The position numbers were made by a program, and so were the translations under genes. From positions 872,265-936,264 of the forward strand of contig OY970378.1 of assembly GCA_963718875.1 (NCBI GenBank): 64,000 bases of DNA, written 5' to 3'. The notes beneath the pieces were generated by a model, which saw only the letters and a list, made by a program, of their open reading frames with translations, was not told where the DNA came from and did not search any database. This stretch comes from Candidatus Parcubacteria bacterium. Lineage in GTDB: Bacteria; Patescibacteriota; Saccharimonadia; UBA4664; JBIOIQ01. Each line of letters opens with the position of its first letter. Positions within the stretch are counted from its first letter, which is position 1. Of the stretch, positions 2,413 to 34,599 are shown in pieces.

Positions 2413-2426
2413 AGGCAAGACCAAAT

Positions 2427-3053: not shown

Positions 3054-3082
3054 AATATACGCTGACTCCCAGAGAGTCAAAT

Positions 3083-3976: not shown

Positions 3977-5334
3977 GGTTTGAGCGTGGCAGTGTAAACC
4001 ACGGAATTCGTATAAGTACCAGACTTTTGAGATGTGGCAGTGTCGGCTCGAAACCGAACTGAGCTTTTTTCTGGTACCCCACCATTAAGTCCAGTGCGGG
4101 AGTGAAATATGGTGGGAGTGGTTGGAATAAAGGCAAAGTTAAAATTGGGCGTACTCCCCCACTTGACTTCTACTTGAGTCCCACTTATAAGGCTAAATCC
4201 TAGGCCCTTGGTTGTTCCCTCATTCCAGGCTGCCGGCGTTGCGATGTTTGCTGTAACACCCGGAATAGTGGTGATTCCGTCAACGGTATGAAGCAAGTCG
4301 TGGTCCTCTTGAATATAGAGCGAATAGCCACCGGCGTCAGTGCGCACCACAGCGTCGGCATCATAAATTTGGGAGATTCCTGGTGTAATGTTTGGCACCG
4401 TAAAAGCACTAGAAGAACCGGCGGCAGCAGAAGAAAAATCATTTTCTATCTCGCGAGGACTTAATGCCCGGCTATATAATTTAACCTCATCAATAGTGCC
4501 TTTAAAAAAGTTGGCTAGGTCATCTCGAGCGCCTAGCTTTAAAGTGTTGGTGTTGGTGGTGGTGGTGCCTATTGACCCCGTGCCAACCGGCGAGCCATCG
4601 ATGTAGAGTGTGGCGCTACCACCAGATTTGGTTACTGCTATGTGCGCAAACGTCCCCGTCGGAACTGCAGAACTACTAGTGATAGTTCGTAAAGCCGTGT
4701 CAAATCCTAAAAACTGTAATTTACCTGTGGTCTGCTCAATGCGCAGCTCGTAAGTATTGTTGGCTGAGCCATTGCCGGTGGTTTTAGCGGCAATGGTGGC
4801 ATTGTTGGCATAGTCGGTAGGTTTAACCCAAGCCTCGATGGTGAGCGATCCGGTCAAGTTTAAATTGGCATTACTGGCAATATTGGTATATTGATTTGAC
4901 CCATTCAAACCCAGTCCTTGGCCCAACTTACCGCTAACCCAAGTGGGCGTCCCGCTGGAATAACCATGGTTTTCGTTGGTGCTAACGTCATAGGCCACCG
5001 TGCCAACTCCCGTATCTAAGGGGTAATACGAGACGGTCCCACTAGGCAACACCGCCAAAGTTATCGACTGAGAAAGCTGAGCCACGTAACCTTGCGTCAG
5101 TTTGTAACTTTGACTCGATCCGCTTCCTACAACCCCTTCTCCACCGGAGTCATAAAGTTTATACGAGGTTGAGGAACCGGCTCCGCCAAAGGTGCTTCCA
5201 ACATTAGGATCTAACCGATAATTTGGACTGGTTAATGAGGTGGCATGGCCTGTGATTGGCAATGCCAAGATAAGCATAACAAACCCGGCTATGTAACGTC
5301 GCACCTCTGTACTCGAATTAAGCATTACCAACAT
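3973..5334 (-). CDS. Secreted LamG/concanavalin A-like lectin domain protein with a WxL-like C-terminus (...GTYTNSVVYTATLKP). Start taken at internal ATG 5334; the ORF as listed runs to 5613.
   Basis: LamG_3-like motifs (LTIEAWVKP, TFAHIAVTKSGGSATLYIDGSPVG, FKGTIDEVKLYSRALSPREI). Signal peptide MLVMLNSSTEVRRYIAGFVMLILALPITGHA. The ORF portion upstream of 5334 overlaps the IS element. Confidence 0.6.
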   Translation of the reverse strand: MLVMLNSSTEVRRYIAGFVMLILALPITGHATSLTSPNYRLDPNVGSTFGGAGSSTSYKLYDSGGEGVVGSGSSQSYKLTQGYVAQLSQSITLAVLPSGTVSYYPLDTGVGTVAYDVSTNENHGYSSGTPTWVSGKLGQGLGLNGSNQYTNIASNANLNLTGSLTIEAWVKPTDYANNATIAAKTTGNGSANNTYELRIEQTTGKLQFLGFDTALRTITSSSAVPTGTFAHIAVTKSGGSATLYIDGSPVGTGSIGTTTTNTNTLKLGARDDLANFFKGTIDEVKLYSRALSPREIENDFSSAAAGSSSAFTVPNITPGISQIYDADAVVRTDAGGYSLYIQEDHDLLHTVDGITTIPGVTANIATPAAWNEGTTKGLGFSLISGTQVEVKWGSTPNFNFAFIPTTPTIFHSRTGLNGGVPEKSSVRFRADTATSQKSGTYTNSVVYTATLKP

Positions 5335-5375
5335 TATGCCAAACTTGTTTGGTTTTGGCCAGCTAGGAAAGGGCG

Positions 5376-6254
5376 GGTTCTGTCCACTAAAACGGAACAG
5401 ACATACTTTTAAGTAATATAAATGGGCTACTGAACAACTCTGGGTGGTTCTTTCTAGCCTGGAACTCTCTGAGTAATCCCGGTAAGAACTGATGCATGAA
5501 GCGGTCGCGGGTACGTCTGGTAAACCGATCCAGGCAGCTCCAGATCCCTTCAATGCGGTTGGTTGGTCCAAAGTGGCCAATGGAATGGTTGCAGATCTCC
5601 AGACCATAGCCAACTTCCATTAGGCCAAGGTGAGAGGCGTGAGCATCAGCAAAGATCAGGCTACCGAGAGTGGCATACTGATCGAGAAAACCTTCTATGC
5701 TATCCTGCTCACAATCTAGTATCTCAGCTAGTCTTACGAGGTTGGTTTCCCGGTCCACGATACCCATAACAATGTGTTGGTTACCATATTTCTGCCGACC
5801 TAGATAGCTCTGGTCTATCTCCAGTAGCCCGACTAACTGGCTCTTGTCGACTGGTAGTCTAGATCGCAAGCGTTCTAACCAGCGTTGGATCGTCCAGTAG
5901 GACAGCCCCGTTGAGGTGATAATGTCGCCAGGTGACTGCTTACCGCTCCAGCAAGTCACCAGTTCCAGAATCCTCCTCCAGCCGAGCTTAGACGACCCAA
6001 AGCCGACTTGTTTCTTTAAGCTCCATTTACGACGACAGGTGCCGCACCAAAGATACTGAGTAGTTATGTGGATGTTTGAGTGAGACATCCAAGGGCAAAT
6101 AGGGCCCTCGGGATAAAGATGTACTAGCACTTGGTTAAAACATTCTTGGTCTGTTACCGGTAGATCTGCTAATGTGGTCATTGGAACAAGTCTCCTTTTC
6201 TAACTGGTTAGTCCTAGTTAGATTGTAGCTTGTTCCGCTTTAGTGTAATGAACC
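5376..6254. mobile_element. IS1595-family insertion sequence (879 bp) with ~25-bp imperfect terminal inverted repeats and a 9-bp direct repeat (GAAAGGGCG) at both flanks
   Basis: Left end GGTTCTGTCCACTAAAACGGAACAG. Right end, reverse-complemented, is GGTTCATTACACTAAAGCGGAACAAG. Flanking GAAAGGGCG at 5367-5375 and 6255-6263. Single transposase ORF inside. Confidence 0.75.
5387..6181 (-). CDS. IS1595-family (ISXO2-like) DDE transposase with N-terminal zinc-ribbon
   Basis: 264 aa. N-terminal CPWMSHSNIHITTQYLWCGTCRRKW zinc ribbon. Length and architecture typical of IS1595. Sits inside the inverted-repeat-bounded element. Confidence 0.75.
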   Translation of the reverse strand: MTTLADLPVTDQECFNQVLVHLYPEGPICPWMSHSNIHITTQYLWCGTCRRKWSLKKQVGFGSSKLGWRRILELVTCWSGKQSPGDIITSTGLSYWTIQRWLERLRSRLPVDKSQLVGLLEIDQSYLGRQKYGNQHIVMGIVDRETNLVRLAEILDCEQDSIEGFLDQYATLGSLIFADAHASHLGLMEVGYGLEICNHSIGHFGPTNRIEGIWSCLDRFTRRTRDRFMHQFLPGLLREFQARKNHPELFSSPFILLKSMSVPF

Positions 6255-6629: not shown

Positions 6630-7553
6630 CTAGTCTTTGCCGCTGAGTGCTCTGAAAGCCTTTTTGAATCTTTTTCGGTTACGCCAGAGCAAGAAGTACA
6701 ATACGACGAGTAGAGAGGCGGCTATGATGAGCAGTTTGTATGGAACAACTGTAAAACTGGTTTCGGCTGTTAACTGTTGTTTGTCGCCGTTGTTTAATAC
6801 CAATGTGGCCTTATAAAAACCAAACATCCACTTTTTATTAAGGGTTGTTTCGGTGCGACGGATAGCGCCAGGAATAACATTCTTGGGCTCCAGCTTGACC
6901 GTGGCAACCTTCATACCCAATAGGTTCTTAACCGTGATTGTGCCTGTCGGCTTGGCGTGAACGTTGCCAGTATCTTTTATACGAGTTTCAAACTTGATGG
7001 GCCCAATCTCGTAAAAGGCCTTTTCGGTTTTAAAACTGGCAATTTCAACCCTCTCATTGGCATTACCGGCAATACGTAAAAATATTAGTGCGCCAAGCTG
7101 CTGCTTAACCGCCGCCCCGGATTGCCCACTCGGTAGCGTGGTCTCCAGAGTGTGGAATACTAACGATCCATAGCGTCCGCCAGGCTCGGCGTTCAAAGGA
7201 ATGTCGATTTTGAAACTAACCGATTGGGTCCCCTTAGCAGGAACGTTTATTACATCGGGTGTAGCGCTAAACCATGGCGCTAAAGAATAAAGGTCGTTAT
7301 TAGTAGTGAGGTCCACTTGCCCCTCTTCGCCTTTAGCAACAAAATTATTGCGGTCAGCTGCCAGGACTAGTGGCGAGCCAGTAAGATTGATGATTTTGAA
7401 TGAGCCGGTTACCGATTGGCCGGGATTAGCCGATATTTCTAAAGATGGCGGGGATATAGCAAACCCAAGTGAATCCGCATGCGCTTGCCCAGCTATTCCA
7501 ACAGAGCTTGCGAGCAAACTTATGACAACTAAAAAGCGAACCAAGTATTTCAT
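6630..7553 (-). CDS. DUF916/DUF3324-like (CscA-like) membrane-anchored surface protein
   Basis: Signal peptide MKYLVRFLVVISLLASSVGIAGQAHA. Motifs NAEPGGRYGSLVF and DTGNVHAKPTGTITVKNLLGMKV. C-terminal TM plus RNRKRFKK tail. Confidence 0.55.
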   Translation of the reverse strand: MKYLVRFLVVISLLASSVGIAGQAHADSLGFAISPPSLEISANPGQSVTGSFKIINLTGSPLVLAADRNNFVAKGEEGQVDLTTNNDLYSLAPWFSATPDVINVPAKGTQSVSFKIDIPLNAEPGGRYGSLVFHTLETTLPSGQSGAAVKQQLGALIFLRIAGNANERVEIASFKTEKAFYEIGPIKFETRIKDTGNVHAKPTGTITVKNLLGMKVATVKLEPKNVIPGAIRRTETTLNKKWMFGFYKATLVLNNGDKQQLTAETSFTVVPYKLLIIAASLLVVLYFLLWRNRKRFKKAFRALSGKD

Positions 7554-7875: not shown

Positions 7876-8970
7876 TTAATAAATGGGGGTGCAGGTGTAG
7901 ATGACGGTGGTGGTGTAGGTGCCTGGTTTTGTAACACCAGAGATGCCAACTTGATGGCCGACGCGGGTGGTTTGTGAAGCTACCGGGGCGGCATCGTAGG
8001 CGACCTCTGCATTGCTGGTAGTGTTAGCCGCCCAGACATCAGGAGTGCTGGTAAAGCGGTTGACGGCTAAGGCTTGCAAGGTGGCGTCATTGGTAGTGTA
8101 GCCGTACGACTCTGTTCCGGCGGCTGAAAATGAGGTTGGTGCGGCGTTGGTTCCAGTGTGGTCAGCAATTTGATTAGCGCCCGAGGTGGGTTTAGCGGTA
8201 TAGCGTATGAATACCGTATACCCGCTGCCGGCGTTGGTGGCGACGCTTAAATCTTGGCAAACAATTGAATTAGAGGCCGTTGTTACGGTACCAAAGGGAA
8301 TGGTGGTAGACGTACTGGCCTGCGTCGATGTTGCCCCATTACAACTAGCTCCGGATGCGACCGTATTAACTGTAAAGCTTAATGTAGGGTCGACGGTTAA
8401 TGACAGGGTCGATCCTGGGGTGAAGATAAACGCTAGAGTTGTATTGTCTACGGGGCTAGTGGTGCAATCGACGTTGTCATAAGTACTAAACTGCATGAAG
8501 TAGCTAACGTTAGGGATGGAGCTGTTTACAACTCCGGCCAATACAAAAGTGGCGTTAGTGGTAGTAGACGGGGTGATGCCAGTGTTGTGGGTATAAGTTA
8601 TGTTATTGGCGGTTGGGGTTAGCGTCCAGCCAGTGCCAGAGCTATTAACTAAAGTTGATGATGCGGCGGTGACGGTGGCAGAGGCGGCGGTGAAGCCGTT
8701 GCCAATATTAACCGCTGAGCTTGGGCTGGTACTAAAAACAGCTTTAATACATTTAATACTGGCGCTGGTAACGTTGCTAGCTGTAGTCGTATAAGTAGAG
8801 GTGGCACTTGGACGAGGGTCGCTTAGAGCGACCGATGCAGGGTTTAGTTGAGCAGCATTAACAATTCCAAAGTTGAGCGACATCGTGCCCAACAAGGTAA
8901 CCCAAGCCATCCATAGTCTCATTAAACGGCCTTGTGAAGCAATGATTTTGATTTGACTATGTTTTTTCAA
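7876..8970 (-). CDS. Secreted WxL-like surface protein, C-terminus ...GTYTTTVIYTCTPIY
   Basis: Signal peptide, then conserved N-terminal segment ...ALSDPRPSATSTYTTTAS.... Thr/Ser/Ala/Asn-rich body. C-terminal motif shared with the 15934 and 17364 paralogs. Confidence 0.55.
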   Translation of the reverse strand: MKKHSQIKIIASQGRLMRLWMAWVTLLGTMSLNFGIVNAAQLNPASVALSDPRPSATSTYTTTASNVTSASIKCIKAVFSTSPSSAVNIGNGFTAASATVTAASSTLVNSSGTGWTLTPTANNITYTHNTGITPSTTTNATFVLAGVVNSSIPNVSYFMQFSTYDNVDCTTSPVDNTTLAFIFTPGSTLSLTVDPTLSFTVNTVASGASCNGATSTQASTSTTIPFGTVTTASNSIVCQDLSVATNAGSGYTVFIRYTAKPTSGANQIADHTGTNAAPTSFSAAGTESYGYTTNDATLQALAVNRFTSTPDVWAANTTSNAEVAYDAAPVASQTTRVGHQVGISGVTKPGTYTTTVIYTCTPIY

Positions 8971-9068: not shown

Positions 9069-10769
9069 CTACTTTTCATTAGACTCATCATCGGGAGTTT
9101 GAGATTCCTGATTTGGGGTTTTGCGCTTAGACCTGCCACGCCAATCGGTAATCATCAAGAATCCGCGCTGAGCCTTGGCAGTCCCGCTCCACACCCACCC
9201 CAGGGGCTTCCAAGCTGCAGCTTTACGCAGCCAGGCAATAAGGTGCGGCTCATGAGCTGTATGCGCAATCTGATGAGCTCCTTTTAGCCTTAGCCATTTT
9301 TCCCTACGCCAAGCTAAAAATAACACTACATTAATAATAGTTGCGACAATAAGCAGAACCACAACTAGCGGCAGCAGCAAGCGCTGGTACCAAGGAGGTG
9401 GAACTGGTTTTTTGAGTGCAGTGGCAGTAATAACTAATTTGAGGTCTGGCGATGGAGAACTTTCGGCGCCAACACTATTGACCCGACTAAAACGAATGGT
9501 GTAATTGCCTGGGAACAATTGCGGTTTATAAGTATATTCCCAAGTGATGCCATTGGCAAAGCCGCCGGCTCCTTTGTCTTTGGCCTTGGAAGCTTTTTTG
9601 TCTTTGGCTAAAAATTGTTCGAGCAGCTTACCATTTAAAAAGACTGATATGGTATCCCCTGCCTCCGACTGCCCAATATAGTTCATGGGTTGTAAAATAA
9701 CTAACGACGAAGGCCAAGTCAGTATCTTGGGAGGGGCAATGCCTGTAATTTCGAAGTCGGTTTTGGCTTCTTTTGTGTTACCGGCTTTGTCGTAGGCAGT
9801 TACTACAATGGTGTGTTTACCTGGGCGCTGTTTGGGGATGGCGTCGCCAGGATTTAAGGGAAAGGCTTCTCCATCATCAATTTTGGCTGTGTAGCGGTCG
9901 ATGCCAGAGATGCCGTCATTAGCTGTAAAACTTGCCTTGGGAGTAGGATTTGAAGCATTGCTGCCGTTGTCCATTTTGACGCTAAAATCATCTGGTGGGC
10001 TAGAATCTATATGAATATCAAAATGGACAGTGCTGCCACCGGTTTGATTAGAGCCTTTTAAATGGAAATACCAAGTCCCTTCATCTAGGTCGTATGAAGT
10101 ATTAATAGTGCCGTTATTGGGACTATTTGGAACGGTGCCTGGGTTACGGTCAACCGCAAATGAGTAATTACCAACGGCCGTTGTAGCAAACCAATTTAGC
10201 TCCACGCGGCGGCTGGTATACCATTGGTTTTCGTTGGGATGAGTTCTGGAGTTTACTGTCAGTAAGGGCACCGGGGGCTTAGGAGTGTTAACGGTAAAAG
10301 TGGCGCCACTGGAGCAGCACAATACATTTGTACCCATGCCATCATTGGCCAGTATTTGACTACCGGCCACATTGACGGTATACGTGCCTGGCGTGGTGGC
10401 ATTAAATATTACGGTCACAACGCGTCCGCCGCTGCCGTTGTAGCCAGGGTTAGACAGCCCACCCGAAAAATAAACTGACGAGCCTGAACCAACAGGCCCG
10501 GCACCTCCCCCACTGGCCCAAGTGGTAAATATTGAGCCCGAGGTAGAGGCAAATGAATATTGTAAGCCGGGGGTCCAGGTAACGGTGGCTTCACCAGCAT
10601 TAATAGCTTGGCCGCCTGAGTTAATCATTATACCCACGCGAATCACGTCGCCAACATTGTAGGCGCCAGAGGATGGTGAAGCGTAAAAGCTGGCGTTGGC
10701 GGCGGCACGGGCTGTGGGGGCCGGGATAAGGCTAGCCGATAAGGAAGAAACGAAAACGGCTAGTAGCAT
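9069..10769 (-). CDS. Large surface protein: signal peptide, N-terminal cohesin-like domain, Ig-like repeats, C-terminal TM helix and cytoplasmic tail. ORF runs to 10913; likely start at MLLAVFVSS.
   Basis: Cohesin-like segment GDVIRVGIMINSGGQAINAGEATVTWTPGLQYSF...GRVVTVIFNATTPGTYTV. TM LLLPLVVVLLIVATIINVVLFLAW near the C-terminus. Confidence 0.55.
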   Translation of the reverse strand: MLLAVFVSSLSASLIPAPTARAAANASFYASPSSGAYNVGDVIRVGIMINSGGQAINAGEATVTWTPGLQYSFASTSGSIFTTWASGGGAGPVGSGSSVYFSGGLSNPGYNGSGGRVVTVIFNATTPGTYTVNVAGSQILANDGMGTNVLCCSSGATFTVNTPKPPVPLLTVNSRTHPNENQWYTSRRVELNWFATTAVGNYSFAVDRNPGTVPNSPNNGTINTSYDLDEGTWYFHLKGSNQTGGSTVHFDIHIDSSPPDDFSVKMDNGSNASNPTPKASFTANDGISGIDRYTAKIDDGEAFPLNPGDAIPKQRPGKHTIVVTAYDKAGNTKEAKTDFEITGIAPPKILTWPSSLVILQPMNYIGQSEAGDTISVFLNGKLLEQFLAKDKKASKAKDKGAGGFANGITWEYTYKPQLFPGNYTIRFSRVNSVGAESSPSPDLKLVITATALKKPVPPPWYQRLLLPLVVVLLIVATIINVVLFLAWRREKWLRLKGAHQIAHTAHEPHLIAWLRKAAAWKPLGWVWSGTAKAQRGFLMITDWRGRSKRKTPNQESQTPDDESNEK

Positions 10770-10909
10770 AAATGAGCGACCCCACGACCTTCGCGCTTGA
10801 ATCCAGTTCAAGGAAGAACCGAGAACCACAGAGAGGCGTACCCGGAAGTACGCTGACCGAGGATCGCAGGCTCTGACGACGAAATGGGCCAAGCGAGTAG
10901 GTCGTAATG

Positions 10910-11440
10910 TCATTTGATGTCTACCTCGATGGGCTTGAGCTGCAAGGGAATTGAGGTACCCAAACCATCATTAAGTTTTACGGCGGTATTACCCGTAAAA
11001 GTTAGTTTGGTTTTGAGGGGTTTTTTAGCCACCAGGGTTACACTACCAACTTTGCCTTGGCCGCGAAAACCAGGGTTAAAAATGCCACCCACAAAACTAA
11101 TGTCGCCGCTGGTATTAGAAAATTTTGGTTCATTGGGAACCCAAATAGTAAAGAATGTCTGATCCTTGCTGATGGAATCTACCTGGACCACCTTGGGGTC
11201 AAACTTTAAATATATCTCAGCCGCATTAATGGTTTGGCCAGCGGTATCAATAACAATTGGTAGTGTTAATCGGTGGTTACTACCCGAAACGGGCTGAGGT
11301 GCAGTAATAGTGGCCTCTCTCGAGGTTGGGGTTTTATTAAATAGCAAATAGCCGCCTATGACTGATATGCCAAACAGGGCAATAAAATGCCAGCGGCGGT
11401 GAGTTGGACGATTTGGTTGAGGTTTTCCCACAGTATCCAT
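10910..11440 (-). CDS. Membrane-anchored cohesin-domain protein
   Basis: N-terminal TM (WHFIALFGISVIGGYLLF). Cohesin-like LTLPIVIDTAGQTINAAEIYLKFDPKVVQVDSI...GDISFVGGIFNPGFRGQGKVGSVTLVAKK. 4-nt overlap with the downstream gene. Confidence 0.6.
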   Translation of the reverse strand: MDTVGKPQPNRPTHRRWHFIALFGISVIGGYLLFNKTPTSREATITAPQPVSGSNHRLTLPIVIDTAGQTINAAEIYLKFDPKVVQVDSISKDQTFFTIWVPNEPKFSNTSGDISFVGGIFNPGFRGQGKVGSVTLVAKKPLKTKLTFTGNTAVKLNDGLGTSIPLQLKPIEVDIK

Positions 11441-13243: not shown

Positions 13244-13255
13244 GACTAAAGCCTA

Positions 13256-13944: not shown

Positions 13945-14772
13945 CTACCCCGTCCAGTAAAACAACATGATCGACAGGTCGGTAAGGTTGGTTTTGGTGT
14001 CATCATTAATATCAGCCGGTTTATTGATGTTGGATTGCAAGTAAAAGAACATGAGGATAGAAAAGTCGGTTAGGTTGACGCGGTTGTCGTTATTTAGGTC
14101 AGCCGAAAGTACCACCGTAAAACTGGCCGGAGGCGTTTGCGGGCTTTGGTTAGCACTCGGGTTTTGCACCACACTGCTGGCAGTGTAAGTACCAAGGTGC
14201 AAGGTTCCGGAAGGTGAGGTTTGCCAATTACCGATGGAATCGGACGGGCTGGTAGTTGCAAACGAATCGCTGTATTTTGCGCCGCTCCAAAAGGTTGTGA
14301 CCGTGGAGTCTTGGCGGGTTGTCCCAACTATTGATTGAATTTGGGGCCGTTTGATGGGGTTTTTAATAATCTGGAATGTGGTGGGCAGTAAATAGCCACT
14401 CAGGGTAGTGGTATAGGCAGGCAAAATCGTGACGTCATTACTAACAGTAGCCGAAACTCGGCCGGATACATCCGTGGCATGAATGCTGTAGGTGGCTAAC
14501 CCTTGGGATTGGTTGGTAAAAGTATTATCAAAACTGCTGTCAGCTCCTGCAGTTTGAGTGCCAATAACCACGCCGTTACGCTCAAACGTTACCAACGCCC
14601 CTGGCGAGGCCTCCCCTACAAACTGAACTCCCCCGTTTTGCACTGGCAGCTCAGCCCCAATAGTTGATTCCTCGGTAAGTGCTGTTATGGCCATAATGGG
14701 GGCGCTTAAAGAGCTGAAAAAAAATAAAGCCGCTAAGGCTGTTGACGGCTTAACGTTAAAACGGGCACGCAT
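13945..14772 (-). CDS. Secreted protein with a C-terminal type-I dockerin-like duplicated repeat
   Basis: Signal peptide. C-terminus ADLNNDNRVNLTDFSILMFFYL...ADINDDTKTNLTDLSIMLFYWTG is a tandem D-x-N-x-D-x-x-x-N-x-x-D Ca-binding repeat typical of dockerin. Start overlaps the stop of the upstream gene. Confidence 0.65.
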   Translation of the reverse strand: MRARFNVKPSTALAALFFFSSLSAPIMAITALTEESTIGAELPVQNGGVQFVGEASPGALVTFERNGVVIGTQTAGADSSFDNTFTNQSQGLATYSIHATDVSGRVSATVSNDVTILPAYTTTLSGYLLPTTFQIIKNPIKRPQIQSIVGTTRQDSTVTTFWSGAKYSDSFATTSPSDSIGNWQTSPSGTLHLGTYTASSVVQNPSANQSPQTPPASFTVVLSADLNNDNRVNLTDFSILMFFYLQSNINKPADINDDTKTNLTDLSIMLFYWTG

Positions 14773-15932
14773 TAGCGACCCTTAATTAAAACCCTGGCAG
14801 CCGACGCAAGACGCTTGCGCAAGACAAACAGCAACACAAGAATGACGATGGCCATAATTAGCACCCAGAGCGGGAAGGCCCAAAAAACAGTTTCAGCGGT
14901 CAAAATTTTGTTTTGCGATCCATAAACGGCTGCCACTTGGGCGCGGTAATATCCACCCCACAGCGACTTCGTAGGCCAAATCACACTAATACGACGTTCG
15001 CCCCCAGGAAATACATTGCGGGGGTCAAGCGCTACTTGATCAACCTTGCGTCCAAAAATATCATAAATCGTAACTGTTCCGGCTGGCTTAAAGTGAACGT
15101 TGCCGGAGTTTTTAAATACCAGATCGAAAGCAATGGGACCTTGATTAAAGTAGCTTTTGGGCTTTTCGTTATTTAGGTCCTCGCCCGAGGCCACGTAGAT
15201 TTTGGTCTTGCCGTCGGAGCCCGTAACTGTTTGCCAGTCCCCAATAAAATTTTTGGTGCGAAAGCTTTTAATACTGCCTGCTTCAGTAACAGCCCCACTA
15301 ACCTTCATCAGAATAAGCGAGCCAACTCGCTGAATTACGCTGGCGCCGGTAGAATTGGAACTTGCAGCCACGACGGGGTTGAATAATACAGTGGCAAAAT
15401 GACCGCCGGGCTCAGCATTTTTGGGAACACGGATAGTAAATGGAACCAGAGCTGACGATTTGGCAGCTAAAGGGATCTGAGTGGTTGTAAAACTAAACCA
15501 ACTGGCAAAGGCGTTAGTCTTTGCGTCATCCGCTACCTTTACCGACCCTTCAGTTCCTGCCACCGTAAAATCTTGAGCGCTGGCAGTTAGTGTTACGGCC
15601 GCATCAGACTCATTGGTTACCCGAATGGTGTTACTTAAGGTGTCTCCTGGGTTAGCGCTTAGTTCATAAGTGGGTGGAGATACAGTAATACCTTGGGTTG
15701 TGGCCGCCGATACCGGTTGGCCGATTGCTATTAAAGCGATAGAGGCCAGAATTAGGCTGCCAAAAGATTTTTTTATAGATAAGAAACTCACTAGGACTTT
15801 CTCACTTGAGTGCAGTTTGGATGCAAATATCGAGTACCGTAAACGAGGCGTAGTTGACCTACGTCGAGTGCGGAACGGAGATTTTGCGCCGAAATGTGCC
15901 AAGTGTGATAGTCCTATAGTACTTATGTTCAT
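14772..15932 (-). CDS. DUF916/DUF3324-like (CscA-like) membrane-anchored surface protein
   Basis: Motifs KNAEPGGHFATVLF and NSGNVHFKPAGTVTIYDIFGRKV. C-terminal TM plus RKRLASAARVLIKGR tail. Confidence 0.55.
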   Translation of the reverse strand: MNISTIGLSHLAHFGAKSPFRTRRRSTTPRLRYSIFASKLHSSEKVLVSFLSIKKSFGSLILASIALIAIGQPVSAATTQGITVSPPTYELSANPGDTLSNTIRVTNESDAAVTLTASAQDFTVAGTEGSVKVADDAKTNAFASWFSFTTTQIPLAAKSSALVPFTIRVPKNAEPGGHFATVLFNPVVAASSNSTGASVIQRVGSLILMKVSGAVTEAGSIKSFRTKNFIGDWQTVTGSDGKTKIYVASGEDLNNEKPKSYFNQGPIAFDLVFKNSGNVHFKPAGTVTIYDIFGRKVDQVALDPRNVFPGGERRISVIWPTKSLWGGYYRAQVAAVYGSQNKILTAETVFWAFPLWVLIMAIVILVLLFVLRKRLASAARVLIKGR

Positions 15933-15933
15933 T

Positions 15934-17036
15934 CTAAAAGGTTGGAGTGCAAGTGTAAACCACTTTCCCGGTATATGTACCCGCCGGCGAGAATACGGTA
16001 AAGCGCAGTCGATATCCTATATTAACCGCATCGCTGGCCACGCTGTTGTTGGCATGGGCTACTTCGGCATCGGTATTGGTGACCCCGGCAAATAAATTAT
16101 CGGCCGTCGTAAAGCGGTTAGCCACCCCAGATAAACTGGCGTCGCTAGTAGTATAGCCAAATAATTCAGCTGGTCCGCCAGGCGTAGCCGTTGGACTCGT
16201 GTTTGTTCCCGTCCAGTCAGGTATAGAAGCTGCTCCATTTTTTAATACATCGCCGGCGGTGGTAAACTTTTAATAGTTACTTGATAGCCGCTGCCAGCAT
16301 TAGTGCTAGTCGTAAGTGTTTGCGCACAATCATAGTCAGTGTTGGGTGATAATGGCTGAATAGCTGAGCCAAATGTGACGGAGGTAGCAGTATCATTACA
16401 AAGGCTAGCTGTGCTTAAGGCACCTTTATAAATAGTGGAAGCTGGAGTCCCGGTAACATTAAAAGTTAAGGTAGGATCGATAGTAAGGCTGACTGTAACG
16501 GCCACTACAATCACGTAGGCAATGGTGGCGGAGTCGACTTCGGTGGTGTAAGTATCATCAGAATAGGTAGTAAGTCGTACAAAATAAGTCCCGGGGTTGG
16601 TGGGATTTGTAACATTACTAAACACAATTTGTTGGGATCCCGTGGGAGCCGCCACATTCGAGCTATTTTTGATCTGAAGTGAGCTCGTAACAGAGTCATT
16701 GGTCCAGCCTGAAGAGTCGCCATAGCCCACCGGTTGGCTGGCAAGGGTGGCGGCGGATGCTGAAAAGCCAGTTGGAGCTACACAACTACCAGAGCTGGTA
16801 GTGCACATTTGAGCTCGGAAAGCCTTGAGTACCGTACTACTGCCGACGGTAAAACTATAACTGTAGGAAACGTTACTCTCGGTCGGCTGGGTGTCCGATA
16901 ACGATACGCTGGCGCTACTAATAGCACCAGCGGCGGCACTGGCCGAAACCCACAGAAGCTTACTGGCAACTAATACCAATAAAACAACAATAGTAGCGTG
17001 CAATCGCACGGGGTACTTGGATATTTGCTTAGTCAT
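15934..17036 (-). pseudogene. WxL-like surface protein paralog of 17364..18308, split by a frameshift at an A4/T4 tract (~16264-16273) into ORFs 16242..17036 and 15934..16125
   Basis: The N-terminal ORF ends ...GYQVTIKSLPPPAMY*. The other frame continues ...FTTAGDVLKNGAASIPDWTGTNTSPTATPGGPAELFGYTTSDASLSGVANRF... to ...GTYTGKVVYTCTPTF and is colinear with the paralog. Confidence 0.55.
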
Positions 17037-17310
17037 AGATGTTTATTTTACGGTTTTTGTTTTAATTACCGCTACTGCTAAGTTAACAAAACTATGGCTA
17101 CCCGTCAAGAATGCTTATGCTTTTAAAATCCTTTAAGGGAAAATTTTCAATGCGGCTTTGCATCATCATTCTTGTATAAGTCTAAGTTAGACTGCTTTTA
17201 AGCACTTTGAACACGTCTATGTTAGACTTATAGTAATAGTAGACGTATGGAGAAGAGCCTACTTATTCATACTTAAAAAGATCCCTCATGCTTTTGACTG
17301 TTAAAAATTG

Positions 17311-17344
17311 GTATCCAAAAAGCTGCCACTGGAAGCGACAGCTT
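17311..17344 (-). terminator. Candidate intrinsic terminator for the 17364 gene: AAAGCTG-13-nt loop-CAGCTTT, followed on the minus strand by TTGGATACCAATTTTTAAC
   Basis: 7-bp stem immediately downstream of the stop codon, followed by a T-rich tract. Confidence 0.45.
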
Positions 17345-17363
17345 TGATGGGTATTTGTTTACT

Positions 17364-18308
17364 TTAGAATACGGGGGTACAGGTATAGACTAGAGTGCCT
17401 CGGTATACACCTGCTTCTGTTACGCCGGTGTATTTGAGTCGGTAGCCCACATTTACTTGATCATTGGCAATGGCCGTAGCATTGTAAGCTACTTGATCCG
17501 GAGTGGTGGTAAGACCGGCAAACAGATCATCCGAAGCGGTAAATCGAGTGGCTACGCCGGATAGGGTGGCGTCGTTAGTGGTGTAGCCAAACGTTTCGGC
17601 GGGAGTGACGGCAGTAGAGGCAGGCGTGGCGTTTGTTCCGGTGGAGTTAGTGATGCTCTTAGTAGCATCACTAATGAGCTTTAGGAAGTCACCACTGGTT
17701 TGCTTGCCTTGGACGGTTACTTGGTAGCCACTATTAGCGTTGGTACTGGTAGCCAGCTGTTGAGCGCAGTCATAGGTAGTGTCAGCTGAAAGTGGCGAGG
17801 CTGGACTACCAAAGGTAACGGCGGTGGCAGTATCGGTACATTTGGCGTCAACTGCCAGGGAACCTTTAAAGGTGGTGGCTGGAGCAAGTCCAGAGACAGT
17901 AAAGCTTAGAGTCGAGTCGATCGTGGCACTTACCAGTACGCTAGGAACCGTTACAAAACCAATCACAGTGGCGTCAACCAGAGTGGCGCACGTGTCATCA
18001 CTGTAGGTGTTTATTTCAATATAAAATGTGCCTCCGCTTGATGAAGTGGGATTCGTAAGTAACTGGATGGGGGTGGTGATTTGGGTACCAGATGTCACTG
18101 ACGCACCAGTGACATTGGTTTCTTTTACCGTTCCAGCCGTACTGTTGTCGATAGTCCAGTTGGCAGCCGTTAAGTTAGTGAAAACACCGTTGGTTGCGGC
18201 AGAGTTAGAAAAACCGGTCGGCGTTGTACCTTGACCGGCATTGGGCGAAGTACTCCAACGATACGTAAAACACTCAAGCGTGGCGGTAGTACTAGCCATC
18301 CAGCTCAA
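17364..18308 (-). CDS. Secreted WxL-like surface protein (...GVYRGTLVYTCTPVF). The true N-terminus probably extends to a GTG near 18503 through a second frameshift.
   Basis: The in-frame upstream sequence encodes ...AAGGLTNASATLSDPRPDAPAASVSY, matching the paralog N-termini. A signal peptide (RRNSTVNGRFRRLFNAVIVASIGLFTFNGLFSAV) lies in another frame, separated at a T/A-rich stretch around 18385-18400. Confidence 0.5.
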   Translation of the reverse strand: MSWMASTTATLECFTYRWSTSPNAGQGTTPTGFSNSAATNGVFTNLTAANWTIDNSTAGTVKETNVTGASVTSGTQITTPIQLLTNPTSSSGGTFYIEINTYSDDTCATLVDATVIGFVTVPSVLVSATIDSTLSFTVSGLAPATTFKGSLAVDAKCTDTATAVTFGSPASPLSADTTYDCAQQLATSTNANSGYQVTVQGKQTSGDFLKLISDATKSITNSTGTNATPASTAVTPAETFGYTTNDATLSGVATRFTASDDLFAGLTTTPDQVAYNATAIANDQVNVGYRLKYTGVTEAGVYRGTLVYTCTPVF

Positions 18309-18614
18309 AGTATAACTTACGCTGGCTGCAGGAGCGTCGGGGCGGGGGTCGCTTAATGTTGCACTAGCGTTAGTTAAACCGCCGGCGGCAAAACGGCCGA
18401 AAACAGACCATTGAACGTAAATAATCCAATACTAGCTACTATAACTGCGTTAAATAAGCGCCGAAAGCGCCCATTAACGGTAGAATTTCTCCTCACAAGA
18501 ACTCCTCACCTTTTATTTGTTGCATTAAGCATAACCATAATGAAAGGCTTGGTCAATAGTTTTTGCGAATCAAGAATCATGAATTATGAATAAAGGGAGA
18601 AGCGCAGCTTTGAT

Positions 18615-19393: not shown

Positions 19394-19432
19394 ACTATCG
19401 CCGTAGCATCCCCTTCCGAGGGTGCTACGGCG
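19394..19432 (-). terminator. GC-rich hairpin (ATCGCCGTAGCA...TGCTACGGCGAT) immediately downstream of the high-GC ORF 19448..19897
   Basis: 12-bp perfect stem with extended pairing; A/T-rich after it on the minus strand. Confidence 0.5.
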
Positions 19433-19447
19433 ATGTTGGCGTCGCTC

Positions 19448-19897
19448 TCAGACGGTGCGAACGACGGTGCGCTGCGTGCAGTGCTTGACGCCCCGCGCGA
19501 AGGCGCGGGTGTGGAGGATGCTGACCTCGTCGCCGACCAGCAGGAGCTGGTTGGTCATTGCGTGGGCGCTCCCGTCCGCGGGCGCAGCCACATTGGCCGG
19601 AATGACCACCCCGTAGATCCGGTGGTAGCGGTCGAGGTCGGTCTGCGAGATGTAGTGGTCGCCACCGTGCGTGCGGTGATGCTCCACGCCCTTGCCGATC
19701 ATGGCCAGGGTTCCTCGCGCGAGGGCCTCGTTGCAGGGAACGCCGGCTGCCCGGCACTCCTGGATGTACTTGGCGACGACTTGTCCCTCGGTCGGCTTGA
19801 CCGGCGGCTGATCACCGGGGGGTAGGACGGCTCGGACGGCAGCGGTGACGTTGCCGACAGCTGAGGCAACACGCTGTCGGCGTGTAGTCGTACTCAT
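19448..19897 (-). CDS. Hypothetical protein in a high-GC island
   Basis: 149-aa ORF in a ~65% GC segment with many overlapping alternative-frame ORFs. No confident domain assignment. Confidence 0.4.
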   Translation of the reverse strand: MSTTTRRQRVASAVGNVTAAVRAVLPPGDQPPVKPTEGQVVAKYIQECRAAGVPCNEALARGTLAMIGKGVEHHRTHGGDHYISQTDLDRYHRIYGVVIPANVAAPADGSAHAMTNQLLLVGDEVSILHTRAFARGVKHCTQRTVVRTV

Positions 19898-21951: not shown

Positions 21952-22872
21952 GTGTCAAAAGTGAGCAAAAAAAGACTTAATCCGGGATGGATTGCGTTAG
22001 GCGCTTTTCTGGCGATAGTCGATTTTGTATTGCTCATCAGATATTTGCTGCACGGTAAAAACGTTGCAGTGTTTAACCCGCAAGGGTTGATTGCTCACGA
22101 GCAACTTAGTCTTATAATCTTAGTTGTAACTGTGCTCCTTACTATTGGCATCCCTACACTTTTTTTGCTGTTTTTTACAGCCTGGAAATATAGGGAATCG
22201 AATACCAAAGCAGTTCGTGTTTCTAACGGCCATCATAGTAAGTTTCTCTTCCTTGCTATATGGCTAATCCCAACCACGTTTATGATTGTACTTGCTACTA
22301 TCATGTGGTCCGCTACCCATAGGCTGGTTCCGCAAGAATCGATTGTTTCTGACGTTAAGCCCTTGAGAATCCAGGTCGTATCAATGCGCTGGAAGTGGTT
22401 GTTTATATATCCCGATCAAAAAATTGCGACGGTCAATTTTGTTCAGATTCCGCTAAATACACCGGTCCAATTTGAATTAACCGCCGATGAAGCGCCAATG
22501 AGTTCGTTCTGGATCCCAAATCTTGGCGGCCAACTGTACTCAATGACTGGCCATGTCAACCGTTTAAACCTGATGGCTGAGACGCCCGGAGATTATCCGG
22601 GGTCGTCGGCCGAAATAAATGGGGCTGGCTTTGCCGGCATGAAATTTACCGCCCGCGCCAGTAATACGGAAGATTTTGACAGTTGGGTTCAAGAAGTAAA
22701 GCAATCTCCAGATGTGCTCGATGCTGCTACATACCAAAGTATATTAAAACCGAGCGAAAACAATCCCACCGCATTCTATTCGGCCTACGACAGCAGCCTG
22801 TATGATAAAGTGGTTATGAAATATATGGGTTCACACGCCCACAAACCAACAAAATACGAGGCGGGACACTAA
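21952..22872 (+). CDS. cyoA: Quinol oxidase subunit II (CyoA-like, no CuA ligands)
   Basis: SSFWIPNLGGQLYSMTGHVNRLNLMAETPGDYPGSSAEINGAGFAGMKFTA closely parallels E. coli CyoA ([51 protein letters not shown]). No Cys/His CuA motif. Confidence 0.85.
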   Translation: MSKVSKKRLNPGWIALGAFLAIVDFVLLIRYLLHGKNVAVFNPQGLIAHEQLSLIILVVTVLLTIGIPTLFLLFFTAWKYRESNTKAVRVSNGHHSKFLFLAIWLIPTTFMIVLATIMWSATHRLVPQESIVSDVKPLRIQVVSMRWKWLFIYPDQKIATVNFVQIPLNTPVQFELTADEAPMSSFWIPNLGGQLYSMTGHVNRLNLMAETPGDYPGSSAEINGAGFAGMKFTARASNTEDFDSWVQEVKQSPDVLDAATYQSILKPSENNPTAFYSAYDSSLYDKVVMKYMGSHAHKPTKYEAGH

Positions 22873-24962
22873 TGAAAGAACTACTTCTTGGTAAATTAGA
22901 CTGGAGCGCATTGCCACACGAATGGTTTACCATTGCTGGATCGATAGCCTTTATCGCTTTGGCATTAATTGTCGCCATTGTCATCACCCGTCAGAAACGC
23001 TGGAAATGGCTGTGGAACGAATGGCTGACATCGGTTGATCCAAAAAAGATTGGAATCATGTACTTTATTGTTGGAGGCTTTATGCTTCTGCGCGGGGGCT
23101 TGGATGCCATTATGTTATGGCTCCAGCAAGCCCTGTCAGCCGGCTCTTCACACGGCTTCCTTTCGGCTGACCATTTCCAGCAAATCTTTACAGCTCACGG
23201 TAATATCATGGTTTTCTTTGTGGCCATGGCCTTTATTTTTGGACTTATTAACTACATTGTGCCGCTACAGATTGGTGCGCGTGACCTGGCGTCACCCTTC
23301 TTGAACACCTTGGGATTTTGGCTATATGTCGGTGGAGTCCTCATGGTAAACATGTTCTTCCTCTTTGGTGGCGAATATGCCGCGACGGGCTGGCTGGCGG
23401 TTGCTCCATTGAGCGGGAAAGAATTTAGCCCAGGAGTGGGTGTGGATTATTGGATATGGAGCCTGCAGATTTCTGGTATTGGTACAACGCTCGGTGCTAT
23501 TAACTTTATTATGACGATTCTAAAAATGCGCGCACCAGGCATGAGCTTTCGAAAGATGCCGCTGTTTACCTGGGGTAGCTTATGCAGCATGCTCATGGCA
23601 GTAACCGTGTTCCCGCTGCTTACCGCAACGCTCTTCTTGATGTTTTTTGACCGGTATTTAGGCACGCACTTTTTTACGACCACGGGCGGCGGTGATCCCA
23701 TGATGTATACCAATCTTATTTGGATGTGGGGACACCCAGAGGTTTATATTTTGATGCTGCCTGCCTTTGGAGTGTTTTCTGAAGTAGTTTCAACATTTAG
23801 CCGCAAGAAAATTGCCAGCTATACGTCAAACGTACTGGGGATGATTGGCGTTTCAGCGCTGGCCCTTTCTGTGTGGTTGCATCATTTCTTTACCATGGGT
23901 GCGGGTGCAAATGTAAATGCATTCTTTGGGGTTATGACAATGATAATTGCAATACCGACATCTGTCTTGGTGTTTACGTGGATAGCTACTATGCACAAAG
24001 GGCGAATACGGTTTGATACGCCTATGCTATGGTTCCTTGGGTTTATCTCTATATTTGCAATTGGCGGCATGGCCGGTGTAATGCTGGCCGTGCCGCCGGC
24101 AGATTTCCAGCTGCACAATAGTCTGTTCCTGGTGGCGCATTTCCATTCTATGGTCATTGGCGGAGTGCTGTTTGGTATCTTTTGCGGCATAACGTACTGG
24201 TTTCCAAAGATTACGGGCTTTAAGCTTAATGAGCGGATTGGCCGGAATGCCTTTTGGTGCTGGATAATTGGATTCTGCATGTCTTTTATTCCAATGTACG
24301 TACTGGGGCTTATGGGAGCCACAAGGCGGCTTGACCATTACGACTCTTCCACTGGCTGGCAGCCATTGTTTATCCTCATGTTGATCGGTGGGATAATCAT
24401 CATGGCGGGTGTGGCTTTGCAGCTTGCCCAGATTTTAGCCAGTGTTATCCAGAAAAAACGCTTGCGCGATACAACCGGTGATCCCTGGAATGGGCGAACC
24501 CTGGAATGGGCTACCGCTTCACCGCCACAGTTTTACAATTTTACCGTTATCCCACACGTTACCACTCGCGATGCATTTTGGGAAATGAAGCAACACGGAC
24601 TACCAAAACCCGCCTATGAAGATATCCATATGCCCAAAAATACAGCTGCTGGCATATATATATCTATCTTTGCCTTCTTGGTTGGCTTTGCTTTTGTGTG
24701 GGAGATTATCTGGCTGGCTGTGGTATCGATAATTGGCATTATTGTAGTGTTTGTTATTCACGCCTTCAACGAACACAGCGAGTACATCCTTACGGCTGCA
24801 GAGGTGCAACAACTCGAGGAAGCTAGGATAAAGAAAGCCCCGGTTGCTAGCCCAAACAAGCATGACGATGCGGATGAAGATATGAGTGTTTGGAAACTTG
24901 TAAAAGTTGTGTTTGCATTCATTTGGGATGTTGTAAAAAACAAACGGTGGCGAAAATGGTAA
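22872..24962 (+). CDS. cyoB: Heme-copper quinol oxidase subunit I
   Basis: GHPEVYILMLPAFGVFSEV, WLHHFFTMGA, 12+ TM segments. Confidence 0.95.
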   Translation: MKELLLGKLDWSALPHEWFTIAGSIAFIALALIVAIVITRQKRWKWLWNEWLTSVDPKKIGIMYFIVGGFMLLRGGLDAIMLWLQQALSAGSSHGFLSADHFQQIFTAHGNIMVFFVAMAFIFGLINYIVPLQIGARDLASPFLNTLGFWLYVGGVLMVNMFFLFGGEYAATGWLAVAPLSGKEFSPGVGVDYWIWSLQISGIGTTLGAINFIMTILKMRAPGMSFRKMPLFTWGSLCSMLMAVTVFPLLTATLFLMFFDRYLGTHFFTTTGGGDPMMYTNLIWMWGHPEVYILMLPAFGVFSEVVSTFSRKKIASYTSNVLGMIGVSALALSVWLHHFFTMGAGANVNAFFGVMTMIIAIPTSVLVFTWIATMHKGRIRFDTPMLWFLGFISIFAIGGMAGVMLAVPPADFQLHNSLFLVAHFHSMVIGGVLFGIFCGITYWFPKITGFKLNERIGRNAFWCWIIGFCMSFIPMYVLGLMGATRRLDHYDSSTGWQPLFILMLIGGIIIMAGVALQLAQILASVIQKKRLRDTTGDPWNGRTLEWATASPPQFYNFTVIPHVTTRDAFWEMKQHGLPKPAYEDIHMPKNTAAGIYISIFAFLVGFAFVWEIIWLAVVSIIGIIVVFVIHAFNEHSEYILTAAEVQQLEEARIKKAPVASPNKHDDADEDMSVWKLVKVVFAFIWDVVKNKRWRKW

Positions 24963-25549
24963 CAGAACCCGGGATGAGCCACCACGAATCAGAAGCCAAC
25001 GATAGAGCAATGTTTGGTTTCTGGGTTTATTTGATGACAGATCTTTTAATGTTTGCTGTTCTTTTCGCAGTGTACGCGGTGTTGCACAGCCATACGCTCG
25101 GCGGAGAGTCAGGACGTGAACTGTTTAGCCTCCCGCTGGCATTGACTGAAACCCTGATTCTTCTCACTAGTAGCTTTACGTGCGGGATCGCCATGATCGC
25201 TGCTCGCCGGGGCAACAAAACCCAAACACTCTTTTGGTTCGGCATTACGTTTGCACTTGGTCTGGCTTTCCTTGGTTTGGAATTGAAAGAATTTGCTGAG
25301 TTTATTCATGAGGGCCACACTCTACGCAGCAATGCATTCTTGTCCTCGTTCTTTGTGCTGGTGGGAACGCACGGGCTACACATTACTTCCGGACTGCTGT
25401 GGATGGCGATTACCCTGGGATTTATTTTGAAACGTGGACTTAACTCTCACATGGTGCGCAAGTTGGCCTTGCTAAGCTTGTTTTGGCACTTTCTGGATAT
25501 TGTGTGGATCTTTATCTTCACCATTGTGTACTTAAGGGCATTCGTATGA
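24956..25549 (+). CDS. cyoC: Quinol oxidase subunit III
   Basis: FGFWVYLMTDLLMFAVLFAVYAVL... resembles the CyoC N-terminus. ATGGTAA overlap with the cyoB stop. Confidence 0.9.
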   Translation: MVTEPGMSHHESEANDRAMFGFWVYLMTDLLMFAVLFAVYAVLHSHTLGGESGRELFSLPLALTETLILLTSSFTCGIAMIAARRGNKTQTLFWFGITFALGLAFLGLELKEFAEFIHEGHTLRSNAFLSSFFVLVGTHGLHITSGLLWMAITLGFILKRGLNSHMVRKLALLSLFWHFLDIVWIFIFTIVYLRAFV

Positions 25550-26239
25550 GCACTCCATCACACAACTCAAATGGCGAGTCAAAGAGCGAACATGGAACTA
25601 TGGCATCCTATGTAATCGGATTTATACTGTCTTTGGTATTCACCTTCATACCGTACTATTTGGTGGTAAGCCAAACCATTTCGGGTAACTGCTTTGCTGG
25701 CAACAATATTAGTATTTGCTGTGATACAAATGATCGTCCAAATAACATTTTTTCTGCACTTGGGGCGTGGGCCAAAACCAAATTGGAACTTGTTCTTCTT
25801 CATAGCGACGGTCGGTATTATTCTGGTCGTGGTGGGAGGCTCAATACTGATTATCAACAACCTGTACTACAATATGCTGCCACTAGACCAGGCCAAGAAG
25901 CTTACAAACGGTGAGGGTATATACCAGATAGGTGGTGAAAAGACCGGAGCTTGTCAGGAGATACAAGCCAATCACAAAATTACGATTAAAAATGGCTTAG
26001 TGAGTCCTCTGCACACTATAGCGCATAAGTGCGACACACTGACGTTTATCAATGAAGACAATGAAGTGCGAGAAATTACTTTTGGAACGCATCCTGAGCA
26101 CGGTGTGTATGCAGGGGAAGATGAACTGGTGGTTCGAAAAGGGCGAAGCAAGTCAATAACGCTGTCTGAGCCGGGTACCTATCAGTTCCATGATCATTTA
26201 CAAGCCGAGATAGCCGGCGACTTTTCCGTAACCCCGTGA
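25546..26239 (+). CDS. cyoD: Quinol oxidase subunit IV (CyoD-like) that needs a +1 frameshift near 25685, with an unusual ~115-aa C-terminal cupredoxin-like extension
   Basis: The cyoC frame encodes TM1 (SYVIGFILSLVFTFIPYYLVV). The +1 frame (open from 25670) encodes ATILVFAVIQMIVQITFFLHLG...WNLFFFIATVGIILVVVGGSILIINNLYYNM, matching CyoD. It then continues to 26239 with a beta-rich segment containing His and Cys residues. Confidence 0.55.
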
Positions 26240-34286: not shown

Positions 34287-34356
34287 AGAAGGATTGTAGC
34301 ATTATTATTATCCACTCACCCTACTGCCCTTTTAGTTCACCGGCGAGGACAATGTT

Positions 34357-34542
34357 ATGATTTGGGCAATGGAAGACGTAGAAGACAAAAAGCGCCAGGC
34401 GTGTTTAGAAAAGCTTACTTGGGAATCTAAAGAAATGGCGGAGGCTGCCCGGGCATATGCCGGTTGGCAGTATGGTGAGTCCAAAACCCTTGCCTACCCG
34501 TGCAAGCATTGTGGCAAGTGGCGTTTGGCCCGAGCAGTTTAG
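34357..34542 (+). CDS. Hypothetical small protein with a CxxC pair
   Basis: 61 aa, ...YPCKHCGKW.... Low support. Confidence 0.25.
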   Translation: MIWAMEDVEDKKRQACLEKLTWESKEMAEAARAYAGWQYGESKTLAYPCKHCGKWRLARAV

Positions 34543-34547
34543 TTTAA

Positions 34548-34598
34548 GAGATCCTGAAAGGTAGAAGCGGCTATCGCCTTTCTCTTCAGGATGACAGC
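34548..34598. repeat. Partial MITE-like copy D (TAAGAGATCCTGAAAGG...TCTCTTCAGGATGACAGC)
   Basis: Carries the right-end TCTTCAGGATGACA motif. Sits at the left edge of a high-GC degraded segment. Confidence 0.4.
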
Positions 34599-34599
34599 T

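Follow-up and report, generated by a model that had tools for sequence, protein, structure and literature searches.

In the 64,000-nt stretch of contig OY970378.1 analyzed here (assembly GCA_963718875.1, positions 872,265 to 936,264; hereafter the window), two adjacent paralogous genes on the minus strand, A and B, each carry a broken reading frame, as a first-pass annotation made from the letters alone had claimed. We consider it likely that both frameshifts are consensus errors of a long-read metagenome-assembled genome (MAG), amounting to one base each or, in gene B, possibly two, and we are comparably confident that both genes are intact and functional and that they form a tandem pair within the Pam pilin family of the candidate phyla radiation (CPR), in an uncultured, ultra-small Saccharimonadia bacterium from soil. 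What carries this reading is an assembly of sequencing run ERR12037361 made by a different method, which restores both pilins and also cyoD, a gene of the same window that we used as comparator; it thereby supports the long-read error that the earlier annotation had listed next to slipped-strand switching and pseudogenization. The features on which the argument turns are the following.

17364..18496, minus strand: gene A, Pam-type pilin of two domains that carries a Sec signal peptide; 377 aa after restoration of one base
18390..18393, minus strand: break in gene A, with T4 on the coding strand (A4 on the plus strand) against T5 in the intact allele
15934..17036, minus strand: gene B, the tandem paralogue of gene A, 366-367 aa with the frame restored
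16245..16271, minus strand: break interval of gene B, limited by the stop codons in the two frames; the window is one base short or has two bases extra
25670..25695, plus strand: frame break in the comparator cyoD, around CCATTTCGGGTAAC; the window has one base extra or is two short
16251..16258, no strand: palindrome CGCCGGCG, inside the gene B break interval
18380..18387, no strand: palindrome CGCCGGCG, 2 nt from the T4 run of gene A
15982..15989, 28464 and 33941: the other copies of CGCCGGCG; three of the five copies lie within the two pilin genes

Two broken pilin genes and a second assembly

Gene A begins with a GTG at 18496, preceded by the Shine-Dalgarno-like sequence AGGTGAGGAG, and its signal peptide occupies an open reading frame (ORF) of 40 codons (18496..18374). 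The mature part lies in a different frame, which is open from stop to stop over 18431..17367, so that the signal peptide is indeed out of frame with the mature protein, and the break, which the first-pass annotation had sought around 18385-18400, falls at the T4 run at 18390-18393. Adding a single T to GCC GTT TT-G CC, which turns T4 into T5, gives a continuous protein of 377 aa, in which T5 reads GTT TTT, that is Val-Phe, upstream of the cleavage region (...SAVFA/AGGL). An orthologue (L002) reads CCT GTT TTT GCA at the same position. Since A/T runs of at least 4 nt cover only about 3% of the bases of gene A, the placement of the break is not random.

Gene B starts with the ATG at 17036 and stays in frame for 264 codons, up to 16242, and its last 111 codons (16269..15937) require that one base be added or two be removed. 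Genes A and B share about 43% identity and are colinear over their whole length, including both halves of B, in keeping with the colinearity noted at first reading; the halves are equally colinear with the orthologues of gene B, and in the blastx alignment the subject residues 272 and 273 are continuous across the break, with none lost. The same annotation had placed both breaks at 4-nt A/T homopolymers, which is borne out for gene A; for gene B, the A4 at 16268-16271 is only one of several options within 16245-16271, next to the T3 at 16264-16266 and the CC/GG runs of the GC-rich CCACCGCCGGCG. The pattern K-[ST]-[LVI]-x-x-G-[DN] of the orthologues fits several of the possible repairs about equally well, and ten repaired full-length versions of gene B together with ten 219-aa C-terminal versions had no match in the protein collection. 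Each of the two genes contains a single lesion, with start codon, ribosome-binding site and signal peptide intact and no further stops. Orthologues of gene B (366-369 aa) adjoin orthologues of gene A in at least five relatives, and in every relative compared both genes are full length (366-390 aa) and stand in the same tandem order.

We then compared the window with the Logan contigs of run ERR12037361, a k-mer assembly; the comparison was one between two consensus assemblies. Four Logan contigs tile positions 6225-34424 of the window (28 kb). For gene A the result is exact. The database holds the shortened gene calls of the window itself, P0001 (311 aa) and P0122 (264 aa), both from one contig of 1,189,924 bp. 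Clustered with P0001 at 90% identity is P0121, a protein of 377 aa from Logan contigs of this run. P0121 equals the T4-to-T5-repaired gene A in every residue, except that the GTG start is given as M; its junction, ...LFSAVFAAGGLTNAS, i.e., ...SAVFAAGG..., implies T5. Gene A measures 1134 nt in Logan versus 1133 nt in the window, and the contig keeps the same gene order. For gene B, a second Logan contig, which also encodes an exact copy of a 275-aa dockerin protein of the window, has an open ORF of 219 codons from the contig edge to the gene B stop. In the window, the frame of the C-terminal part extends over no more than 111 codons and is interrupted by many stops upstream of them; the Logan contig must therefore hold an indel that restores the frame of gene B. 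Two Logan contigs end within gene B at 16593, at AACCCCGGGAC (C4G3), a sign that the k-mer assembly, too, may be broken up where reads are ambiguous at short GC runs.

The comparator behaves in the same way. A third Logan contig has 263 uninterrupted codons at cyoD versus 189 in the window, where the N-terminal part is in another frame, so that cyoD, listed in the first-pass annotation as sharing the ambiguity of the pilins, does have a frame break near 25670-25695. The cyoD break is opposite in sign to the pilin breaks, and the gene encodes a non-surface subunit of a respiratory oxidase. In cyoD (about 25546..26239, plus strand), the C-terminal part continues into a cupredoxin-like domain in the same ORF. 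As Logan shows a single uninterrupted ORF here, of 263 codons or more, the gene looks to be a fusion of CyoD with a cupredoxin, in an operon for a cytochrome bo3-type oxidase of Saccharimonadia.

Elsewhere between 6225 and 34424, the other gene calls that we compared are equal in length in both assemblies, except for one codon at the cyoA stop, and five products in this stretch (192, 275, 376, 586, and 614 aa) are identical by exact sequence. A sixth identical product, of 561 aa, lies on a fifth Logan contig, at 50658..52343. The frame discrepancies thus number three in 28 kb (about one per 9 kb), all of them frame-restoring in Logan and of mixed sign. By coordinate arithmetic, cyoA, at 22870..22875, ends one codon later in Logan (TAA TGA) than in the window, which implies at least one substitution between the assemblies, be it micro-diversity or another error. 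Exact-product look-ups with the 386-aa and 235-aa longest ORFs, with P0001 and with the 393-aa GSDH gene returned no match, the gene caller having used other starts; two exact-pattern scans of the JGI metagenome contigs for either allele likewise returned none.

These results bear directly on two other explanations. The first, pseudogenization, was among those proposed at first reading: both pilins would be recent pseudogenes fixed in this strain, and the Logan contigs would come from a co-occurring close strain with intact copies. The window sequence as given is, after all, frameshifted in both genes, an intact third pilin paralogue (7876..8970) could compensate for their loss, and a fragment of an IS1595-type transposase lies within the cluster. 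The intact copies with otherwise identical products contradict this explanation, however, as five exactly identical neighboring products and equal gene lengths elsewhere in the tiled stretch argue for one and the same strain. It would also require three independent inactivations, one of them in a respiratory oxidase subunit and all of them absent from the sister assembly, and neither gene has undergone secondary decay, with one lesion per gene and start, ribosome-binding site and signal peptide preserved. We regard fixed pseudogenes as very improbable. The second explanation takes the genomic sequence to be correct and the genes to be expressed, with programmed -1 ribosomal frameshifting or transcriptional slippage restoring the frame. 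The same one-base correction does suit both lesions, at or near short T or A runs. Yet the orthologues encode their proteins in one frame, an intact DNA allele is present in the reads (P0121 in Logan), and transcriptional slippage is inefficient at runs of 3-4 nt. Programmed frameshifting was rejected because a slippery heptamer of the form X XXY YYZ is found at neither break (stimulatory structures were not searched for), and we give this explanation as a whole next to no credence.

Origin of the breaks

If the frameshifts are consensus errors, the provenance of the two assemblies matters. A gene B orthologue, P0125, of MAG MFD01275.bin.1.95 (ENA ERZ25039476) is also found on a Logan contig of ERR12037361, and the run therefore comes from the Microflora Danica sample MFD01275. 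The long-read MAGs of Microflora Danica were built from Nanopore data only, with Flye assembly and one round of Medaka "to reduce indel errors," and their authors checked the catalogue for Nanopore-associated errors. We infer that the source of the window is another MAG of sample MFD01275 and that ERR12037361 is the deep Nanopore run of that sample, given that 5-9 kb contigs of two distinct Saccharimonadia come out of it and that its read file is very large. By this indirect link, the source assembly is most likely Nanopore-only (metaFlye plus one Medaka round), and its consensus or polishing step would have set short runs wrongly.

What the two pilin sites have in common is the palindrome CGCCGGCG, which occurs five times in the 64 kb against 0.64 copies expected. 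It may be a methylation motif that disturbs Nanopore basecalling or polishing, and the consensus errors may have been worsened where GCCGGC/CGCCGGCG, in modified form, adjoins the two pilin sites; that the association reflects biology is less likely. We favor consensus errors because this one cause covers all three sites, in gene A, gene B and cyoD.

Several observations nevertheless weigh against this reading. The continuity of gene B and of cyoD in Logan was read from gene-call lengths and coordinates. If ERR12037361 represents the same Nanopore data, the check that it provides is independent of assembler and polisher and not of the chemistry. The window contains 38 homopolymers of at least 7 nt, none of which coincides with a break that we found, and two such runs, A8 at 14717-14724 and T7 at 15768-15774, read alike in both assemblies, in genes whose products have exact Logan counterparts. 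The breaks are all at short runs, unlike the classic pattern of homopolymer errors, and the presence of CGCCGGCG beside both pilin breaks points to a sequence-specific cause, whether technical or biological. Finally, real micro-diversity in the sample is possible, as the cyoA stop difference allows for it.

Some of these same observations could be accommodated by real length heterogeneity, in which intact and frameshifted pilin alleles coexist, be it through phase variation or through standing polymorphism, and each assembler picked a different one. Two assemblies of one sample disagree at exactly these pilin sites, surface pili are the usual targets of ON/OFF switching, a rare palindrome adjoins both sites, and the one-codon difference at the cyoA stop hints at micro-diversity. 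On the other hand, the tracts measure only 3-5 nt, and the tracts of known slippage switches are far longer. The longest run within gene A or B is 6 nt and lies away from the breaks, and runs in the upstream regions do not exceed 5 nt, so that neither gene offers a hypermutable tract. The non-surface gene cyoD shows a comparable discrepancy, opposite in sign, no relative has a long tract or a broken copy, and Nanopore-only consensus errors cover all three sites by one cause. The slipped-strand ON/OFF switching put forward at first reading therefore finds little in its favor here, and we hold coexisting alleles to be unlikely. A more specific variant, in which a Saccharimonadia epibiont switches its two adjacent Pam pilins by indels at very short runs beside CGCCGGCG, appears to us a distinctly long shot; if true, phase or antigenic variation of pili in CPR bacteria would here take a form that is non-classical and directed by sequence.

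Consensus errors, the explanation that we prefer, have practical consequences. Taken at face value, the window would lead one to call two of the three main pilin genes pseudogenes, or to over-read them as a phase-variation switch. As a matter of quality control, a genome with about one frame-breaking indel per 9 kb of checked stretch needs its split genes repaired before any biology is drawn from them. The kinase and the lipoprotein that the first-pass annotation listed alongside the pilins probably also belong among the split genes to be repaired; their breaks were not located in a Pfam search of ten overlapping same-strand ORF pairs and of the ORF-poor stretch at 34.3-35.9 kb, which gave ordinary adjacent genes or no hits, and a codon-usage frame scan was too weak for a window-wide list of frameshifts.

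Pilin family, chaperones and cluster

Both genes resemble one known family. Pfam gives no match for either of them. The NCBIfam model NF058581 (CPR_Pam_pilin_C) matches gene A with an E value of 9e-7, over model positions 3-148 of 148, and gene B with an E value of 4e-6. The matches to genes A and B and to the third paralogue span positions 2/3-148 of 148 and score 27-35 bits, below the NCBI cut-off of 55 bits. The same model is matched by 55 of the 71 homologues of gene A, at best with an E value of 1.6e-50, and the PamT model by 8. Judged by these sequence matches, genes A and B appear to be divergent but ordinary members of the known pilin family of CPR Pam pili. The homologues and their loci come mostly from Candidatus Saccharimonadia/Saccharibacteria, plus WWE3; two homologue records are labeled otherwise, as Nanoarchaeia and as RCC1-repeat proteins, with weak scores. 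The Pam family was described in 2026, with the pilins PamA and PamB of Candidatus Mycosynbacter amalyticus being two-domain proteins exported by Sec, whose polymerization by donor-strand exchange, so far known only for these two, was shown by cryo-electron microscopy; their operon also encodes PapD/FimC-like chaperones anchored in the membrane, and the family is specific to the CPR (Saccharimonadia, Microgenomatia) (bioRxiv 10.64898/2026.03.03.709456).

For mature gene A, AlphaFold2 (AF2) gives a confident model (pLDDT 94.3) with two domains, both all-beta (residues about 1-147 and 161-341). Ig-like pilin and adhesin folds led both of the fold searches made with it. In the Foldseek search of the PDB, its best matches are the two-domain tip adhesin CfaE and a CfaE-CfaB fusion, accompanied by Gram-positive Ig-like adhesins and pilins; the PDB copy searched holds no Pam structures.

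The pilin genes belong to a cluster on one strand, from 1402 to 18496, with three pilin paralogues and three chaperone-like genes, and its gene order recurs in four related Saccharimonadia contigs. Besides genes A and B, it contains the following features.

17317..17343, minus strand: hairpin resembling a terminator, directly behind gene A and followed by T5 (AGCTGTC-9 nt-GGCAGCT TTTT), read directly from the sequence
14772..15902, minus strand: predicted membrane-anchored chaperone of the WxLIP/DUF916 type, PamC/PamD-like, with two beta domains and a C-terminal transmembrane helix
13945..14772, minus strand: secreted Ig-like (Big_6) and dockerin protein, from Pfam, with its exact product on a Logan contig; conserved in relatives
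10910..11440, minus strand: cohesin-domain protein (PF00963, E 5e-6), with a weak cohesin mark on the Logan gene
9069..10913, minus strand: 614-aa Ig-like surface protein (Big_13 / OmpL47-type)
7876..8970, minus strand: third Pam-type pilin paralogue, intact (NF058581, E 1.3e-8; blastx matches to pilins of relatives)
6630..7553, minus strand: second WxLIP-like chaperone paralogue, from blastx and domain scans
3973..5613, minus strand: LamG/TafC-like protein
2427..3080, minus strand: candidate single-domain (PamT-like) pilin, with a weak match to NF058581 (E 0.058, positions 3-146 of 148)
1402..2508, minus strand: third chaperone-like gene

The hairpin after gene A was not flagged by a terminator scan, its loop being 9 nt long. 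If the cluster works as the published Pam system does, Sec would export both pilins, the membrane-anchored, WxLIP-like chaperone that is encoded downstream would hold them, and they may then polymerize by donor-strand exchange into thin pili for host contact. The cohesin protein (10910..11440) and the dockerin protein (13945..14772), both conserved in relatives, may form a non-covalent docking pair on the pilus. A fragment of an IS1595-family DDE transposase (5387..6181, minus strand) overlaps the 5' end of the LamG/TafC-like gene, and the Logan contig ends next to it, at about 6225.

The chaperone encoded downstream of gene B connects the cluster to another surface system. Its 376-aa product is identical in the source contig and in Logan. 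The PF06030 (DUF916) domain is weak in the chaperone of the window (E 2e-4) and present in many CPR homologues, and the profile of the chaperone family matches WxLIP1 of Enterococcus faecium (EfmWxLIP1, PDB 9i25_C) with an E value of 1.2e-6. The AF2 model (pLDDT 87.7) has two beta domains and a helix at residues 345-374; the first PDB folds that it retrieves are the E. faecium WxLIP structures 9i25/9i1y (E 6e-11), followed by CfaA, CsuC, Caf1M, and FimC, and also by EcpB and DraB. On the strength of this profile match and of the predicted fold, we take the chaperone to be a real homologue of the enterococcal WxL-interacting protein.

The pilins themselves do not share this relationship. The first-pass annotation had labeled them WxL-like, a description that is a fair, remote analogy at the level of the system, given the downstream WxLIP homologue and the layout of the cluster, and that fails at the level of the family. 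The Pfam WxL model (PF13731) gave no hit at E ≤ 1 for gene A, gene B or any of the 71 family members, and the mature sequences of genes A and B contain no W-x-L motif. A profile of the pilin family matched no PDB chain at E ≤ 10, including those of 9i25, which by its title holds a WxL chain, and the 50 best Foldseek hits of the gene A model do not include 9i25. Membership of genes A and B in the WxL family was rejected for lack of a PF13731 hit, a W-x-L motif and a PDB chain match.

Outside the cluster, three regions of the window stood out. At 19425..19897, with uppS on one side and the gene for heme O synthase on the other, a GC-rich patch contains long ORFs that overlap on opposite strands; the Logan gene call is a 130-aa ORF on the plus strand, and it has no family hit. 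At 34300..35900, about 1.6 kb is devoid of long ORFs on either strand and has a slightly raised GC content (0.52), and neither Pfam searches of fragments nor Rfam gave a hit there. At 60166..61122 (minus strand), one frame is divided by single stop codons into three open stretches; a signal peptidase S26 fragment and SodN, the nickel superoxide dismutase, account for two of them as ordinary neighboring genes, and the third is without a hit.

Comparison with known systems

The breaks resemble the residual indel errors of Nanopore-only assemblies in most respects: they are one-base indels of either sign at short runs, they split conserved genes, and the lesions are absent from a differently made assembly of the sample's reads. 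They differ from such errors in that comparable homopolymers of 7-9 nt agree between the assemblies and that two of the three errors lie beside the same GC-rich palindrome. With the contingency loci of Neisseria, Haemophilus, and Campylobacter, the window shares a frame-changing length difference, here at a short homopolymer, in genes for surface structures, here two tandem paralogues. However, the tracts of known switches are long as opposed to 3-5 nt, a respiratory gene is affected here as well, and the evidence for heterogeneity in the window consists of two assemblers that disagree, and of nothing beyond that.

As for the proteins, the pilins of the window are closest to the Pam pilins (PamA/PamB/PamE) of M. 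amalyticus and other CPR bacteria, with which they share their origin in Saccharimonadia, the Sec signal peptide, two beta-rich domains and several cysteines; at about 36 kDa by residue count, the mature pilin of the window is close to PamB. Several pilin paralogues occur in one operon with membrane-anchored two-domain chaperones, as in the Pam system. The operon of the window adds a cohesin and a dockerin protein, which go unmentioned in the Pam preprint, and no ATP synthase genes are seen beside the cluster in the window. Chaperone-usher pili (CFA/I, Pap, Fim, Caf1, Csu) are a more distant parallel: CfaE is the best hit of the pilin model, and donor-strand exchange is common to these pili and Pam pili, but here both the usher and an outer membrane are lacking, the chaperone is anchored in the membrane, and sequence identity (about 10%) and TM-scores (0.2-0.35) are low.

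The WxL clusters of Firmicutes offer the parallel on the side of the chaperone. A typical WxL cluster encodes two WxL proteins and one WxLIP (DUF916-DUF3324-transmembrane helix), a strand of which is predicted to insert into the WxL domain (PMC10599100). The window has the same arrangement, two secreted beta-rich proteins followed by one WxLIP homologue, which is the commonest WxL layout, and that homologue likewise has two Ig-like domains and a C-terminal transmembrane helix. WxL proteins have been described as peptidoglycan-bound surface proteins and not as filaments, and neither WxL nor DUF916 is mentioned in the Pam preprint (bioRxiv 10.64898/2026.03.03.709456). The homology between the Pam chaperone and the WxLIP of enterococci and lactobacilli may be of interest to specialists. 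For both, insertion of a strand of the chaperone or WxLIP into a domain of its partner has been proposed, and the comparison suggests that WxL clusters and Pam pili share ancestry and the logic of strand insertion.

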